From positions 1-54,142 of IMG/VR virus record IMGVR_UViG_3300022936_000002: a stretch of DNA of 54,142 nucleotides. One strand, written 5' to 3'. Every line of letters begins with the position of its first letter. Position 1 is the stretch's first letter. The position numbers and the translations under genes are program-made. The notes beneath the pieces were generated by a model, which did no database searches, was not told where the DNA came from, and saw only the letters and a program-made list of their open reading frames with translations. Shown in pieces: positions 4,611 through 51,237 of this stretch. Source of the DNA: a virus (taxonomy: Duplodnaviria > Caudoviricetes).

Positions 4611-7600
4611 GAATTACGCCTTTCCTCCCACCTTGCTTTTGCCATTCCGTCACGAACCCCCCGGCTTGCTGCATCCTGGACCTGACGGGGGTTGCCGCCG
4701 GGCGCGTTAACGTTTACGTGGATCGTCGGGCCGTAGGTCGTGTTATTGTTCGTCGAGGACATGCCCGAGTACGCGCCGACCATTCCACCGCCCGCAAATG
4801 CAGGCATTTGAAGATTGTTCACTTTTTCGAAAAAGTCTCTGCCCCAGAACCGGACGGCGCGGGCGGTGTTCACGAACTCGCCGTTAGATAACCGGGCGAA
4901 TATTGAATCGGACGTTCCGCTGCCAGGTCCCGAGATAAGTCCGCCGGATGCATGGCCGATGAGACCACCGAGCCCGCCAAGCGCGCCCTCTCCAACAGAA
5001 TGCGCCCCTGTTCCTAAACTAGTGGTCGTGGGCGTGCTTGCTGCCGCGCTAATGATCTTCATAATGGCCTGATAGACCATGACTTTTATGAGCTCCTGAA
5101 TGATACCTTGAACGAGTTGAGCAAATCCCTGAAGCATCGAAGTAAAGAACCCTTTGAATGTTCCGTCCCATTTTGCGACGCTGGTCGAGATAACATCAGC
5201 AACGCCAGACACGGCATCCGCCATACTGTCCTTGAAAGCCGTCGAAAATGAGACGGATCGCGCTTGCATCATCCCTATCCGATCCATAAATGTTTCGCTA
5301 TCGGCAATCGTTTTCTCAGTAATTGCTTGACGTATTTCAAGGATGCGCTGCAATTGCGCCGCTTCAAGGATTAATGGTTCCAACGTAGAATAATTGGCTA
5401 TGCGTTGCTTTAAGTCGGCGATGGACTGATAGGTGCCGATTTGATTCAATAGCGCGTCGCTCTCCGTCTTAACGGCAAAAAACTTTTCGGCTCCCACCGC
5501 CTTGATTTGATCGATGGTCGCCTGCAAGCCTTCCGGGCTTCCAAAGAAGGAAGCTAGATCATCCTTATCCTTGCCCTGCTTGAGAGCTTCGCGGGATTGG
5601 CTGAGCTGTTTGATAGCGCCGTTGAGTTGCAGAATCGCCGCGCTCGTTTTGGGTGCTCCGTTTTGCTCAAGATCAGCGAGGTTTTTCTGAAGAGATTGAA
5701 TCACCTCGTCATATTGCGTAACGGCATCGGTACCTTCTCCGCCTCGACTAATTGCGGCGCTCCGGTTAGCCATTTGCGCCGCTATGGCCGATTTCATCTT
5801 AACTTTCTCTAATTCGTAGGCATTGTTAATACGAATTTTCTCGGCTGCAATCAAATCGTTCGTCGTGCCAAGCTCGGTATCGAGTTGCCCGATCTGCGTG
5901 TCATAGCGCAGATTCGCACTTAGCTTCTGAGCTTCGTAAAACCCTTTAGCCCCTTTGGTCCCGTCTCCGATAGCAGATGCAAGTTGCAGAAACTGAATTT
6001 TCACTTTATCGGACAGCGTGGTAGACGCGCGGAAAAATTCAACTAGCTTCGTGGTAGATTTGCTGCCAAAAGTGTCGGGGTTAAAATAAATGTCCGCGAG
6101 ATTGCCTCCTAGATCGCCAATGGCTTTCAACGTGCTGTTAAACGCGTCTCTCCTGGATTGTAAACTGCGTACAAGTTGGTCGTTCTGCTTCTCGGATATA
6201 TCAAGCAATCGACGCCCGCCTTCTTCTGCGAGCTTCGCGACGTCAAGGTTCATTCTAGCGTTGATATTTACACGCTCTTCCGCTGAGAGCGACTCGTCTT
6301 GAAGTTGGAGCGAAGTTTGTTCGCGGATTATGGCGCCGATCTTTGCGTAGGCGCGCTGCGTCTCGTCCGTAATTCGAGAAAATGCCTCCGTTGTTGCCGT
6401 GCCCAGAGAAATGGACGAATCGAAATTAAACGCGGAAGTATCGAGATTAAAGGAGACGGATTCAGACGCAATCTGCTTGAATTCCAGTAGGGCAGACCGG
6501 CGTTGCTTTAGAATTTTGTCTTCCGCTTCTGCTATCTGTTTCGCTGTATTGATCTCATGGAGAGCAAGGTCGGTACTGATCTTCCCAATAGTGCGCGCTT
6601 TATCGTCTTCGATCGCCTCTCGCTGCTTTGACGTCAATCCCAAGATCGCAAGCTCGCTCCGGAAAAATCTTGTCGCTTCCGCTAACTGTTTTTCAAGTCC
6701 CTGTTTTTTTACTTTTGCCAGCTCCCTTACGCCGTCGAGCTCGTCTTGCGATGTCTTTCGTACGCGAGCCGACACCATGGCTTCGTTAACCCGGTTAAAG
6801 CTGTCCGTAATCGCCGACTGAGCGGAGTAACCCCTTTTCCATGTTTCCAATATTTCGGCCGCCGTCTGCTTTGCGCTCTGAGCGGCCTTACTGTCCGCAT
6901 CCTTTAGTTTTTGGGCCTTTTCTAACGCCGTGGTGATCATCTTGTCACCTTCTGTCCGCATCATATTGCCTGCGTCACGCATTGCCTGCCCGGCTTTCGG
7001 ACCGAACATAAAATCATCGCCCGCGTCCTTCAGTCCTCGCATGACGACTAAAAACGGTTGCAGGATGGGCGAAACGTCACCCCGGAAATTCTTCTTGAGC
7101 TCTTCGATGATGATTCCGCCGATGCCCTCAAGTCCTTTCCCAATACCCTCGCCGATTTTCTCGCCGATTACCTGACCCGCCGCATGCCAATCACCGCCCC
7201 GGCTTTGTATTTCGCCGATGGTATCGCTTAAGGCATTATTAATGGCATTTCCCCATGCCGCAAACGTAGCCTGGTTGTCCGTGAGCGCCTTGGATGCAAG
7301 GTTCATCCCTGTGGTGATCGCGGGCGCGAAAGCGAGCGTGAATCTGGCTGCACTGGTTTTTGCCTGCAGGCCAACCATGTCAAGTGTATCGCCGAATTTA
7401 TCTGCTGCGACTATCGTTTCTTTATCAAGAATCAGTCCGAGATCGCGAGCACGTTTGATCACGTCCGGAATACTTCCGCCGAATTCCTTAAGAAAGGGAA
7501 TCATATCGGCACCGGAACGACCAAACCCCTCCTGCGAGGCCTTCATCTGCTCTATGCCTTCGGGGTATTTGAGAATTGTCTGATAAGCCTGCCCCAGTGC

Positions 7601-8803: not shown

Positions 8804-8840
8804 AAATCAGCCTCCTAAAAGTGCAACCGATTATAAACTA

Positions 8841-8868
8841 AAAAGGCGGCTAATTAAAGCCGCCTTTT
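8841..8868. terminator. Intrinsic (likely bidirectional) terminator directly after GGY-NN array 1
   Basis: AAAAGGCGGC-TAATTAAA-GCCGCCTTTT perfect stem with A/T tails. Confidence 0.85.
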
Positions 8869-8871
8869 CCC

Positions 8872-8961
8872 TTGCCCTACCTCGCCTGACCAAGCCTGAC
8901 CAAGCCTAACCAAGCCGTGCCCCGCCATTCCGTACCATGGCGCGCCCCGACTCACCAGGCC
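8872..8961 (-). ncRNA. (GGY-NN)18 pentamer array 1; putative guide RNA
   Basis: GGCct GGTga GTCgg GGCgc GCCat GGTac GGAat GGCgg GGCac GGCtt GGTta GGCtt GGTca GGCtt GGTca GGCga GGTag GGCaa; strict 5-nt phase, between the HNH stop and a terminator. Confidence 0.85.
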
Positions 8962-8979: not shown

Positions 8980-9273
8980 TTACTCCCACAGGTGTTTACG
9001 CCAGTCCGGCCCAATTATACCCTTTTTTAGCGCGTTCGCGATCATCCCCCTGTGTCTATGATCGAGCCTCAAAACATGATGCATGCGGCAAAGCACCCGC
9101 AGGTTCGATATATGATTCGTGCCCAGCTTACCAGATCGAATATGGTCACAGTGGAACTCTTCAAAGGTGACGGGATGCTTGCCATAGGGGTACTGGCACA
9201 TCCCGCCATCCCGCTCATAGACGGCCTTTCTCATTTCTTGCCAGATCTCTCGCGGCGGTCGTTGTCGCGGCAT
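8980..9273 (-). CDS. HNH endonuclease
   Basis: VYERDGGMCQY..HCDHI..GTNHISNLRVLCRMHH; start overlaps stop of the RAMP-like gene (TAATG). Confidence 0.9.
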   Translation of the reverse strand: MPRQRPPREIWQEMRKAVYERDGGMCQYPYGKHPVTFEEFHCDHIRSGKLGTNHISNLRVLCRMHHVLRLDHRHRGMIANALKKGIIGPDWRKHLWE

Positions 9274-9956
9274 TATTCCTCAATCTCAAACGAAACGGTC
9301 TGGAAACGGCCGAACCCGATAGCCCGGGCATCCCCAAGACCAACTAGGACTCCGGCATCATTTAGCACACTTTCCATTTGCGCCCGGTTAACCAGCGTTT
9401 TATCCCAGAGAATCTTAAAGGTACACTCCCACCCCGGCGAAGCGGCCAAACGATAACGCACGTTTCGTCCTTTGGTGCTAGGGTTACGAACAGAGCGCAC
9501 ATCGAGATAAACAGGTGCGCTCGTATCGCGTGACGGATCTTCGGCCTTCGTGATATCGAATTTGGCCTCAAGGTCGCCTGCTTCATACAGCCCGATACGG
9601 GGTATCTGCAACCCACCCTCCTTGTTTGCGAACACGGGATAACCGGGCATAAACCTATCGAGCAAAATCTGATCATCCAAAACTTGAAGTGTTGCGGCAA
9701 CGTCTGTCTGAATCGACCCCTTTCCCTTTTTCGTATATTTTGCCGCATTACGCAAGCACGAAAAGATATACGACCCATCGACAAAAAGCTGCCCGGTTTC
9801 TGTAACCATTGCCGATTTTTTCCACTCTTCGGGATCGTTTCCGGCAACGCCCGTGCGTTCCTGTTTTTCGAGAGGCAGTGATGCCTCGGTGAATCTGTGT
9901 TGTAGCAGGGGCCTTACGCCCCTGATCGTGATTGCTGCTCTAATAATATTCGACAT
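9273..9956 (-). CDS. Solo Cas7/RAMP-like protein (Vipr-like putative RNA-guided effector)
   Basis: N-terminal ITIRGVRPLLQH strand, LFVDGSYIFSCL, GWECTFKI, C-terminal G-rich loop AGVLVGLGDARAIGFGRF; no cas1/cas operon nearby. Confidence 0.8.
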   Translation of the reverse strand: MSNIIRAAITIRGVRPLLQHRFTEASLPLEKQERTGVAGNDPEEWKKSAMVTETGQLFVDGSYIFSCLRNAAKYTKKGKGSIQTDVAATLQVLDDQILLDRFMPGYPVFANKEGGLQIPRIGLYEAGDLEAKFDITKAEDPSRDTSAPVYLDVRSVRNPSTKGRNVRYRLAASPGWECTFKILWDKTLVNRAQMESVLNDAGVLVGLGDARAIGFGRFQTVSFEIEE

Positions 9957-10946: not shown

Positions 10947-11039
10947 ATTTTACATTACGCGTATATACTTGTCAATAGTATATCGTATAGATATATCATT
11001 TATTTTCTTGACGCGTATATACGTGTTGTGCTATACAAT
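10947..11039. promoter_or_regulatory. Divergent sigma70 promoters, each containing ACGCGTATATAC (putative RHH operator)
   Basis: Minus strand TTGACA(10975-10970)-17-TAAAAT(10952-10947); plus strand TTGACG(11008-11013) then TATACAAT; 12-mer at 10957-10968 and 11011-11022. Confidence 0.75.
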
Positions 11040-11226: not shown

Positions 11227-11296
11227 GGCGTGGTACAGCCAGGCTGGGAGAGGCGGGGCACGTTGTGGTGGGGCGGGGTTTGGTTTGGCAAGGTTT
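11227..11296 (+). ncRNA. (GGY-NN)14 pentamer array 2; putative guide RNA
   Basis: GGCgt GGTac AGCca GGCtg GGAga GGCgg GGCac GTTgt GGTgg GGCgg GGTtt GGTtt GGCaa GGTtt then T-rich tract; same GGCAAGG 3' end as array 1. Confidence 0.82.
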
Positions 11297-11309
11297 TTAT
11301 TTTGATGCC

Positions 11310-11627
11310 CTACTCTAGCTTCTTTAGCTTTTCTAGTATTTTTTTGCGGAGCGTTTCTTTACCCTGCCACGCCGCGGGTATAAGATAGGGCTGTGACGCC
11401 ATGCGGCTTGTGCCGAATTCCACGAATCCGGCGTGGGGGGCCGTGAACCCAACGCGTGATACATTGCCTTCGTGCTCTACCTGCATAGAATCGCGTAGTT
11501 CCCCTGTTCGTACAGGTGCGTTGCGCTGAGCGGTCACGCCAACCTCTTCGGCGGTTTCTACGCGCGCTTCATCTACCGCCGCCTTCGCCGCCGCCGTGAT
11601 CACGCGGATCCTGCTTACGATTCTCAT
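11310..11627 (-). CDS. HK97 gp10-like tail completion protein
   Basis: APVRTGELRDS..HAGFVEFGTSRMASQPYLIPA. Confidence 0.9.
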   Translation of the reverse strand: MRIVSRIRVITAAAKAAVDEARVETAEEVGVTAQRNAPVRTGELRDSMQVEHEGNVSRVGFTAPHAGFVEFGTSRMASQPYLIPAAWQGKETLRKKILEKLKKLE

Positions 11628-16254: not shown

Positions 16255-16659
16255 TTACAACTCCACCGAAAGAATCTTATCGGCTGCTACGCCGAGCGTT
16301 TGAGCCCACCCCGGAAGCACCCGGCCTACCCTGACGCTCACGGTACCAGCGGCATCGCCAAGACGCGCGTCGGTGTCCGAAACGTAGATCGCGGCGTTAT
16401 AAGCCTGTGTAAACGTAAAGCCGTCCAGTTTTCCGCGACGGATCGCAGTTACCGGCTCGTTAGCGGCAACAGTTTTCGTCGCGATGCCGTAGATATTCGA
16501 CTCCGTGGCGTCCGTGCCGTTTCCGTTCACGAACTTGCCGCTTGTGTCGATGCGCACGGGAGCGCCGGCGGAAATCGCTTCTCCGGCGGGCGCGGTGTGC
16601 TGTTGAATTGATTCGACGACCTCGATTCTGTCGGCGGTCGCAACTGCGATGTTTGCCAT
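16255..16659 (-). CDS. Capsid decoration/cement protein
   Basis: AGEAISAGAPVRI..YGIA..ANEPVT motif. Confidence 0.75.
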   Translation of the reverse strand: MANIAVATADRIEVVESIQQHTAPAGEAISAGAPVRIDTSGKFVNGNGTDATESNIYGIATKTVAANEPVTAIRRGKLDGFTFTQAYNAAIYVSDTDARLGDAAGTVSVRVGRVLPGWAQTLGVAADKILSVEL

Positions 16660-49873: not shown

Positions 49874-50116
49874 ATGAGCACGGACGACGAAAAACGATTA
49901 GAAGAGAAATTGGACCAAGTTATCGACGCTCTGCCGATCATCTACGCCTTGGGGGATCTTCTTGTCACCCGGGGAGAGGTAAACCGCACCCGGGGGCTGA
50001 ATAAGAATACCATCGCCCAGAACGATGGAATCGCCACATTCGAGCCGGTCGGTATTCGTAAGACCCTGATCGAAATAAAAGATATTACTGTGCTGCGAAA
50101 AAAGCGCAAACGCTAA
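49874..50116 (+). CDS. Putative excisionase / recombination directionality factor
   Basis: 80-aa ORF with basic C-terminus converging on the integrase. Confidence 0.45.
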   Translation: MSTDDEKRLEEKLDQVIDALPIIYALGDLLVTRGEVNRTRGLNKNTIAQNDGIATFEPVGIRKTLIEIKDITVLRKKRKR

Positions 50117-51237
50117 TTGATCGAATCCGTCTCTATTATCGGCCCGCTTATCACTTCCCTGTACTTCTTCACAAAAGCCTCGTCTAAATGCGAATATCGA
50201 ACGTTTGTCGAAAGGTGCACCTGCCCGAGCAATAACATTCTTTCCATGTCATTAAATTGAGGCATGAGCAGGATCTTCGAATTATAGTAGTGCCGAAAAT
50301 CTCGCAGCCATATACCCTTCACGCCGATCGATCGACAAAGCGTTGCCCACGACCGCCGAAAGGTGGTAATCGGAAATATAATATCTTCCGGTGAAGGGTT
50401 TGTGCGGAGATGCAGCGCTCTTAATCCAGTCTCAAGCTCCCGCGATGCCGGCACAACCCTTTCCTTGCGAATTCTTCCTTTATAAGAAACTAACCTGACG
50501 GCTTTGAAGTCGAACTCGAGAACGTGCGCCCACGTTAACGGCTCCCGGATCACGCTATCGTCAGAAGCATTGAACGGATGGATCTCCGACGGTCTGGCGC
50601 CGGTGTGCATGGCAACAAGTATTAGATAATGCAAAAGGGGCTGCTCGGACTTCCGGGACCGCGCGAGCAGGCGTTTAGCGATCCTGTCCGTTAGAGGTGA
50701 TTGCCGCGGCAGCTCCAAGGCGATCTCAATAAGATTCTCCCCAAAATCGAACGGACTTTCTTTTACCCATTTTCGAGACAACGCTTTTTTAAACATCGTC
50801 CGCATTAAAGCAAACTCGCGGTTTACGGTGGCGATAGATACGTGCTTCAGTCTTTCCCTTTTATACCGCCTTAAGGTGTCCACGGAGATCGTAGTGAGCT
50901 GATGCAGGCCGAACTGCTTTACCAGGTGCGCCAAGGTGTACCGCTGCGCCTTCCACGTCCGCACGCCGATCAGCCGCTTCCCTGTTTGATAGACCGGGGG
51001 TATCAAAAATTCTCGCTCGTACCACTCTGCCAGCCAAGTAAAGGTTTTATTCGAAACATTCTCAGCCTGTGGGTTATCGAGCATGGCAAGTGCCCATTGC
51101 CGAGCCTCGGTTTTGCTCGAAACTTTTTTTCTTTTTTTCTTATATTTGCCGTTTCCGAGAGGAATATTTACAACCGCGTATAGATCTCCGTCTATGATCG
51201 CGGTGTAATCCCCGTACCGGCCTCGTTTCTTAGGCAT
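50113..51237 (-). CDS. int: Tyrosine integrase
   Basis: ATVNRE, TGARPSEI, RDFRH, LGQ..TNVRY; adjacent attP. Confidence 0.92.
   Translation of the reverse strand: MPKKRGRYGDYTAIIDGDLYAVVNIPLGNGKYKKKRKKVSSKTEARQWALAMLDNPQAENVSNKTFTWLAEWYEREFLIPPVYQTGKRLIGVRTWKAQRYTLAHLVKQFGLHQLTTISVDTLRRYKRERLKHVSIATVNREFALMRTMFKKALSRKWVKESPFDFGENLIEIALELPRQSPLTDRIAKRLLARSRKSEQPLLHYLILVAMHTGARPSEIHPFNASDDSVIREPLTWAHVLEFDFKAVRLVSYKGRIRKERVVPASRELETGLRALHLRTNPSPEDIIFPITTFRRSWATLCRSIGVKGIWLRDFRHYYNSKILLMPQFNDMERMLLLGQVHLSTNVRYSHLDEAFVKKYREVISGPIIETDSIN

Follow-up and report, generated by a model that had tools for sequence, protein, structure and literature searches.

Which DNA does a phage-borne repeat array read, and why should it come so close to matching the genome that carries it? 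This question is raised by array 2, a run of five-base GGYNN units on the plus strand (positions 11227-11296) of virus record IMGVR_UViG_3300022936_000002 (Duplodnaviria; Caudoviricetes), all 54,142 nucleotides of which were analysed and are called the window here. An original prediction, made from the letters of the window, held that the two variable bases (NN) of successive units, written with one base skipped after each pair, spell a diverged, in-frame copy of the phage's own tape-measure protein (TMP) gene, and that the true target is the orthologous gene of a competing phage. Based on sequence comparisons, control guides, and fold modeling, we conclude that array 2 is probably the guide RNA of a Viral Interference Programmable Repeat (VIPR) system in a complete temperate siphovirus, its natural targets being the TMP genes of others and its own gene being spared by five mismatches.

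VIPR systems are known from preprints of 2026, which are cited here from the accessible parts of their text. In that text, a VIPR locus comprises a ~20-kDa ancestral RAMP protein (Vipr), an accessory gene (vap), and guide RNAs (vrRNAs) of 9 to 16 YNNGG repeats with a conserved tail; NN pairs with double-stranded DNA under a "1-nt skip rule" that passes over one base, generally the wobble base, and the targets lie in competing phages and satellites (10.64898/2026.04.26.720920). The same preprint describes seven types, some with nuclease vaps, calls natural targets at an NN match of at least 80%, finds no self match that high in its own-contig controls, and reports that perturbed NN pairing abolished silencing, that internal degenerate units are common in working vrRNAs, and that RAMPs have little sequence similarity to each other (10.64898/2026.04.26.720920). 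According to the accessible text of a companion preprint, the filament has one protomer per repeat and 11 to 12 subunits when complete, and the R-loop extends along the vrRNA in the 3' to 5' direction (10.64898/2026.04.26.720927).

Array 2 matches the phage's own tape-measure gene

Array 2 consists of 14 five-base units, 12 of which open with GG (the exceptions are unit 3, AGCCA, and unit 8, GTTGT) and 13 of which have C or T at position 3. On re-reading, its NN series is identical to that given in the original prediction, GT AC CA TG GA GG AC GT GG GG TT TT, followed by AA TT in units 13 and 14. Since related arrays mostly close with GGCAAGG(CAAGG) and a T-run or hairpin, we assign units 13 and 14 to the tail, which leaves a guide of 12 units, the length that had been assumed. 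The guide decodes to V-T-(Q/H)-(W/C)-(D/E)-G-T-V-G-G-(F/L)-(F/L). The coordinates of this and other features are collected in Table 1.

When units 1 to 12 of the array 2 transcript (vrRNA-2) are read as NN-x against positions 5179 to 5144 on the minus strand, they agree with the TMP gene at 19 of 24 positions (21 of 28 for all 14 units), and array 2 has no better match on either strand of the window. The predicted alignment is thus reproduced, in frame, and the skipped base proves to be codon position 3 throughout. The NN-x decoding is the published 1-nt skip rule of VIPR, as given in the accessible text of the first preprint (10.64898/2026.04.26.720920). The score depends on the size of the gap: it is 19/24 when 1 nt is skipped and nowhere in the window exceeds 16/24 when the gap is 0 or 2 nt.

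Four null models were applied to this match. Shuffling the order of the 12 NN pairs produced a score of at least 19/24 in the window in 1 of 500 trials. Random NN drawn from both of the window's arrays reached at least 19/24 in 21 of 3000 trials and at least 21/28 in 16 of 3000, and a codon-shuffled window gave 2 of 1500 at 19/24 or better and 4 of 1500 at 21/28. Real arrays of other loci, used as decoys, never reached 19/24 in any of 158 twelve-unit stretches (maximum, 18). These models place the probability of a 19/24 match in this genome at ~0.001 to 0.007, so that the earlier binomial estimate of ~0.004 was of the right order. The shuffle test with gaps of 0, 1, and 2 nt that had been suggested along with it also came out in favor of the alignment, with lower scores for shuffled and decoy NN.

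One possible explanation for a match of this size is nevertheless chance resemblance, in which case array 2 would be a real vrRNA whose true target is a different, still unsequenced one, and the 19/24 agreement with its own TMP gene would be a coincidence. Chance usually yields a best score of 16 to 18, which 19 exceeds by only one or two, the match was picked post hoc, and no perfect target is found in a TMP gene. Array 2 also scores 19/24 once in an unrelated, foreign 81-kb phage record, and 12 of 114 decoy stretches reach 19 somewhere in 770 kb of DNA (none reaches 20). The wobble register, on the other hand, is right at the phage's own TMP gene and wrong in the foreign match, where the skipped base is codon position 1 of an open reading frame (ORF).

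The guide resembles some other tape-measure genes more closely than the phage's own

A profile search of 1.84 billion representative proteins (one per 50% cluster) returned 181 homologues of the TMP C-terminal region. Because NN corresponds to codon positions 1 and 2, the match to the guide can be scored from protein sequence, and 143 gapless, non-self sites of the TMP family were scored in this way. The family consensus at the aligned site is V-[ATS]-Q-W-D-G-T-x-K-G-F-F, and the guide reads V-T-Q-W-D-G-T-V-G-G-F-F; that is, vrRNA-2 spells codon positions 1 and 2 of the most conserved motif of the family. Scores of at least 20/24, which is above the 19 of the self site, are found at 38 of the 143 sites, scores of at least 21 at 10 of them, and the best score is 22/24. 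The best site (ITQWDGTIGGFF; 92%, compared with 79% for self) belongs to P0319, a 976-amino-acid tape-measure protein with PHROG and Pfam tail-protein assignments that is 37% identical to the phage's own TMP at the C terminus and 30% identical at the N terminus.

The five mismatches between guide and self fall in units 2, 3, 8, and 9, three of them in units 8 and 9. When the self site was given five random substitutions (5000 trials), the observed mean score was equalled in 1 trial, the observed count of sites at 20 or above in 2, the count at 21 or above in 4, and the observed maximum in 52. With the five mismatch positions held fixed, the bases actually present rank 2nd among the 243 combinations by fit to the TMP family. 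Finally, 105 decoy guides compared with 149 full-length TMP-family proteins in both orientations gave 20/24 once and never a higher score. Based on the random-substitution, 243-combination, and decoy-guide controls, we conclude that guide and self do not differ at random: the differences fall on variable residues and lean towards states present in other tape measures.

These results bear directly on chance resemblance. A coincidental guide would have to differ from self at family-variable residues and in the direction of the orthologues, as happened in only 1 to 4 of 5000 random trials by three measures, and would have to score above self at more than one-quarter of the orthologue sites when decoy guides seldom score so well. 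We therefore regard chance as quite unlikely.

The same substitutions bear on a second explanation, that Vipr and vrRNA-2 bind the phage's own TMP gene and damp or time late genes, for example, in the lysogen. The genome has no better match than the own site, whose 79% is just below the 80% convention of the preprint's authors, a ribbon-helix-helix (RHH) regulator is linked to the array, and the phage encodes an integrase (50113-51237) and is temperate. However, the substitutions point away from self and towards other TMPs, and the conserved HNH nuclease encoded beside Vipr means that self-binding would risk self-cutting. The accessible preprint text also reports that silencing was lost on NN perturbation and that no self match reached 80% (10.64898/2026.04.26.720920). 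Moreover, near-self matching is not a general property of such arrays: for 9 other arrays in 6 VIPR phage genomes, the best self score is 17 to 18/24 (17/22 for one 11-unit guide), like the non-self scores. Self-regulation is thus very unlikely in our judgment.

DNA encoding TMP orthologues was sought as well. A single-protein query of viral_contigs gave none, an alignment query gave one locus (L029, 17/24), and there was none in metagenome_contigs and none in the phage collection. In 12 loci encoding relatives of the major capsid protein (L050 to L061), no TMP homologue is detectable within 10 kb of the head gene, and the scores are 14 to 17/24. The major head proteins of these loci are 41 to 59% identical to that of the window. 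The tail module looks mosaic.

Array 2 lies in a cassette with the features of VIPR

The 227-amino-acid protein encoded in the cassette, here called Vipr, has a single family match, PHROG 4652 (unknown function). A homologue search gave 1579 proteins at E ≤ 0.001; the best 119 of these, apart from the window's own protein, are mostly ~207 amino acids long and 53 to 71% identical to Vipr, and they come from several phyla, none being functionally named. A Foldseek search with the AF2 model (pLDDT 80.4) gave 132 matches at E ≤ 0.001, led by Csm3, Cmr4, and type VII Cas7 (best E 2.8e-8). An all-against-all comparison by VIA-align, which is independent of Foldseek, likewise places CRISPR RAMPs first, with Z scores of 11.0 (6s6b_I) and 10.8 (9g9a_D). 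The G-loop (G214, G216, R217, and F218) does not vary across 30 aligned sequences, and a conserved loop of low confidence, residues 27-45, is the putative thumb. A 21-residue insertion after FMPGYPV (residues ~107-127, pLDDT below 50) occurs in 0 of 29 aligned homologues.

The neighboring 97-amino-acid HNH protein retains the catalytic and zinc residues: C26, C31, D43, H44, N53, N57, C62, and H66 are each present in at least 26 of 27 homologues. We compared the cassette with 28 related loci, of which 13 are on viral contigs and 15 in genomes of Armatimonadota, Bacillota, Cyanobacteria, Chlamydiales, and others (two loci, L012 and L018, are the same in sequence). An HNH homologue lies just downstream of vipr in 28 of 28 loci, and one to five GGYNN arrays lie on the strand of vipr in 27 of 28, so that the combination of RAMP, HNH protein, and GGY/NN arrays recurs in phages and bacteria of many phyla. 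Divergent arrays like array 2 are also present in L002 and L008.

In a logo of 507 units from related arrays, 91% of units have C or T at position 3, and the information content of positions 4 and 5 is 0.07 and 0.03 bits. The conservation of GG in this logo is circular, since the arrays were found by means of positions 1 and 2; ~5% of these positions are not G. Most related arrays close with GGCAAGGCAAGG or something very like it, after which comes a T-run or a hairpin. The NN composition of the 507 units (arrays of L001 to L028 and of the window) correlates with that of sense codon positions 1 and 2 of phage ORFs (r = +0.44), compared with -0.64 to +0.12 for the other five registers, a pattern suggesting in-frame reading of the coding strand by most guides of this clade. 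A test of the skip rule in a relative was unsuccessful: the Bacillus array L021, scanned against 269 genomes of its family with up to 3 mismatches, gave 3 matches compared with 4 for a reversed control, which is the chance level.

Arrays in the related loci have up to 22 units, with one run of 28 (L006, 4871-5010), which may be two fused or staggered vrRNAs. L005 and L007 have a homologous array in common that has drifted at GG as well as at NN. A TATAAT-like hexamer lies within ~10 nt upstream of many arrays (L004, L017, L019, L021, L023, and L024), as if each vrRNA had a promoter of its own; no such hexamer was found upstream of the two arrays of the window.

Our first idea, that the array was a TRAP-like or CsrB-like protein-binding RNA or a G-quadruplex, was dropped on the Vipr RAMP fold and the VIPR preprints. 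In a broader form of that idea, the G-rich repeat is a G-quadruplex, a terminator-like element, or a TRAP/CsrB-style protein sponge, and NN is a mere spacer. NN is indeed almost information-free in the unit logo, and there is no Rfam family for the array. However, such arrays are always found together with a Cas7-like RAMP, information about the TMP family is contained in the NN series of array 2, and the accessible text of the preprints shows guide function for other VIPR types by biochemistry, reporters, and cryo-EM. It is therefore extremely unlikely that array 2 is not a guide.

Comparison with known systems

The VIPR features found in the cassette are a small single-RRM RAMP with a G-loop, GGY/NN arrays with hypervariable NN, an adjacent HNH vap, and, for array 2 in silico, the 1-nt skip at the wobble base. 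Compared with the type II VIPR of coliphage SUSP1 and of a Pseudomonas fulva prophage, the cassette is alike in that it is phage-borne, has a small RAMP beside GGY/NN arrays of ~9 to 16 units with a 3' end that appears conserved, skips 1 nt at the wobble base, and has proposed targets in homologous genes of rivals, with a self match below the non-self match. It differs in that the accessory is an HNH nuclease rather than the DNA-binding vap1, in that one array is divergent behind an RHH gene, and in that arrays of this family reach 17 to 22 units, and in one case 28. Its tail is a short GGCAAGG with a T-run or hairpin, whereas the SUSP1 tail is a pseudoknot. No sequence similarity to these systems was detected by tblastn of the 227-amino-acid protein against 50,697 phage records (no match at E ≤ 1e-3), although whether SUSP1 is among those records was not checked.

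As for type, the accessible preprint text assigns predicted nucleases or helicases to types III to V, and the legend to its fig. S21 lists HNH among the vaps of types II, III, and VII (10.64898/2026.04.26.720920). Read together, these statements provisionally point to type III for a locus with an HNH vap. Nuclease VIPR of types III and V is described in the accessible text as enriched in bacterial defense islands and as serving host immunity, in contrast to the present copy, which lies in the tail module of a complete phage. According to the accessible part of a later preprint, tape-measure and baseplate genes are among those carried by SUSP1 satellites, and guides match self less well than they match rivals (10.64898/2026.10.15.759431); that of another describes how a language model picked out 99 VIPR-like clusters whose period is 5 nt (10.64898/2026.10.21.760802). 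HNH is not mentioned in the accessible text of these two preprints, nor is mismatch in that of the companion preprint (10.64898/2026.04.26.720927). In the accessible text of the VIPR preprints, tape measures appear as satellite cargo only, and supplementary locus tables may list the present family.

The cassette has a fold and a G-loop in common with the Cas7, Csm3, and Cmr4 proteins of class 1 CRISPR systems, as well as, presumably, one protomer per guide repeat and periodic unpaired bases. It differs from them in its period of 5 rather than 6 nt, in the fixed GGY that each protomer would read, and in its gapped target, in which 2 of every 3 bases would be paired. No CRISPR array was detected between 8.3 and 11.7 kb, where the sole Rfam CRISPR match lies inside vipr and is at chance level (18.1 bits where 35 is required, E 1.4). 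No Rfam match passed the threshold, and no cas family was found among the neighboring ORFs in Pfam, NCBIfam, or PADLOC.

The trp leader RNA bound by TRAP has 11 (G/U)AG triplets with spacers of 2 to 3 nt. TRAP and VIPR are alike in that a protein oligomer reads a fixed triplet every 5 nt of RNA; in the TRAP RNA the spacers carry no information, whereas here the two "spacer" bases are the guide.

Proposed function of array 2

By analogy with the preprints, a Vipr protomer would bind each GGY of vrRNA-2, and the filament would present the NN pairs to double-stranded DNA, with which they would form a gapped R-loop that skips every third, wobble base. The targets would be TMP genes of rival phages or satellites with the V/I-T-Q...G-G variant of the motif, at which the complex might repress or, through the predicted activity of the HNH protein, cut the DNA. 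The phage's own TMP gene would escape by virtue of its five mismatches, three of which lie in the adjacent units 8 and 9, the fifth and fourth units from the 3' end, where pairing reportedly starts. The two proposals in the original prediction, that the target is a competing phage and that mismatches protect self, are in agreement with the VIPR preprints by analogy.

Several points weigh against this interpretation. The claim that the orthologous TMP gene of a related phage is the target stands insofar as better-than-self matches are enriched in the family, but perfect matches are absent: a pattern search for perfect TMP-gene matches with the 12-unit pattern gave 0 exact matches in viral_contigs and metagenome_contigs, units 4 to 12 alone gave 0 exact matches in viral_contigs, and these exact-match scans would miss a target with a single mismatch in the stretch. 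(A target-pattern scan of the phage's own record with up to 3 mismatches also gave 0.) The scores of the better-than-self orthologue sites rest on protein sequence rather than on gene DNA, and this includes the score of P0319, for which the first two codon bases are unambiguous at 12 of 12 residues. V at position 8 occurs at 3 sites and G at position 9 at 7 gapless sites, but the two never occur together. The three nearest TMP relatives (two of which are listings of one 1037-amino-acid protein) keep WDGTFKGFF and score 17/24, below self. One of the better-matching TMP proteins comes from an Acidobacteriota metagenome-assembled genome and the rest come from metagenomes, and their phages may not share a host with this one. 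Since the 80% threshold is the convention of the preprint's authors rather than a measured tolerance, self at 19/24 (79%) may not be safe. The expression of the vrRNA, its binding by Vipr, and the activity of the HNH protein are predictions. Lastly, array 2 has no hairpin terminator and contains two units that lack GG.

The last two features would also be expected if array 2 were a relic, that is, a decaying or orphaned vrRNA that once matched the phage's own ancestral or recombined TMP gene and no longer works. GG is lost in 2 of 14 units, array 2 is on the strand opposite to vipr, and the GATGCCC after its T-run resembles the array-to-HNH junction of other loci, which may mark a recombined fragment, perhaps acquired by exchange with another VIPR locus. 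Set against decay, degenerate internal units are common in working vrRNAs according to the accessible preprint text, and the ~5% of non-G bases at positions 1 and 2 of related arrays is in keeping with this. Divergent arrays are present in two other loci, the conserved tail and T-run of array 2 are intact, and its 12 guide units fit the 11 to 12 protomers of the solved filaments. We consider it improbable, to about the same degree as chance resemblance, that array 2 is such a relic.

There is also a further reading of the near-self match, which is that it is a trace of how guides are born: codon positions 1 and 2 of a conserved structural gene common to carrier and rivals (the phage's own ancestral TMP gene or that of a recombining relative) would have been copied into the GGY scaffold, with self-tolerance arising by later divergence in a few units. 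This is unlikely, though somewhat less so than the other alternatives. In a weaker variant of this reading, the 79% self match may be functional, and an HNH-armed VIPR may tune its own tail genes. Based on the TMP-family scores, the direction of the five substitutions, and the make-up of the cassette, we favor a vrRNA that is directed at the TMP genes of others.

Layout of the cassette and of the phage

The virus record that makes up the window is complete and has direct terminal repeats, and its integrase, large terminase, major head protein, and tape measure identify it as a temperate siphovirus. The VIPR cassette occupies 8.8 to 11.3 kb, between a tail-completion gene (11310-11627) and the tape-measure gene. 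On the minus strand, a promoter-like site is followed by the 80-, 202-, 227-, and 97-amino-acid genes and array 1; on the plus strand, the 54-amino-acid RHH gene is followed by array 2.

Table 1. Features of the tape-measure gene and the VIPR cassette in the window
Feature	Position	Strand	Basis or remarks
Tape-measure protein (TMP) gene, 1239 aa	4607..8326	-	PHROG tape-measure families; 181 homologues of C-terminal region
Near-cognate self site	5144..5179	-	TMP codons 1050-1061 (VAKWDGTFKGFF); 19/24, skip at wobble base
Cassette ORF, 113 aa	8462..8803	-	Hydrophobic N terminus; downstream of array 1; no family match
vrRNA-1 tail and intrinsic terminator	8838..8876	-	GGCAA GGGAA; hairpin 8869-8840 with T-run
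vrRNA-1 guide region	8877..8961	-	17 GGYNN units, read 8961 to 8877
vap accessory gene, 97-aa HNH nuclease	8980..9273	-	Family match and 27 homologues
vipr, 227-aa Cas7-like RAMP	9273..9956	-	AF2 fold model and structural searches
Cassette gene, 202 aa	9980..10588	-	C-terminal CxxC...CxxC; no family match
Cassette gene, 80 aa	10659..10901	-	Upstream of vipr; no family match
Divergent control region	10947..11026	.	Between RHH gene and vipr operon
Ribbon-helix-helix gene (CopG/Arc-like), 54 aa	11044..11208	+	Directly upstream of array 2, same strand, 18-nt gap
vrRNA-2 guide region	11227..11286	+	12 GGYNN units; unit logo over 507 related-array units
vrRNA-2 3' tail	11287..11303	+	GGCAA GGTTT, then T-run TTATTTT; array 3' ends compared in 28 loci and the window

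The minus-strand promoter-like site (10975-10947) agrees with the sigma-70 consensus at 11 of 12 positions. It is overlapped by 24-nt boxes containing ACGCGTATATAC, which are present in two copies (10949-10972 and 11003-11026), the second with the palindrome ACGCGTATATACGTGT; these boxes are candidate operators of the RHH protein. No promoter of array 2's own, separate from that of the RHH gene, was found, and the RHH gene and array 2 are probably co-transcribed, with vrRNA-2 ending at the T-run. A sequencing-run search for the stretch matched one DNA run, probably the source metagenome, and listed no RNA run. The GATGCCC that follows the T-run of array 2 (11297-11310) resembles the "T-run + ATGCC..." junction between an array and the HNH start in L012, L020, and others.

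Array 1, taken as 8857-8961 on the minus strand, has GG in 18 of 21 units. No target was found for it: its best self match is only 20/34, its units 1 to 10 and 8 to 17 have 0 exact matches in viral_contigs, and it scores at most 18/24 against 396 proteins in either orientation. None of the 80-, 202-, and 113-amino-acid proteins has a homologue in the 28 related loci. Neither these three nor the 227-amino-acid protein had a match in PADLOC, NCBIfam, or Pfam, and the DNA of the cassette has no match in the phage collection. Outside the cassette, 6 five-base units at 16302-16331 (minus strand), 5 of them with GG, were judged to be due to chance.

Significance

The kind of system is already known from the 2026 preprints, and the decoding of array 2 will therefore not surprise a specialist. 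Specific to this locus are the placement of an HNH-type VIPR within the tail module of a complete temperate phage, a divergent vrRNA behind an RHH gene, and a guide that reads a conserved tape-measure motif, matching self at 79% and genes of other phages at up to 92%. That the five mismatches to self point towards other TMPs is new. Natural VIPR targets are known mainly for two clades, and this locus offers a natural setting for learning which number and placement of mismatches divide self from non-self, given an effector that may cut its target instead of simply repressing it. As nothing but codon positions 1 and 2 is read by the guide, candidate targets can be found in protein databases without the target DNA. 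Members of the 207-amino-acid family (PHROG 4652, with no Pfam entry) and their HNH partners can now be annotated by name in the genomes of many phages and bacteria.

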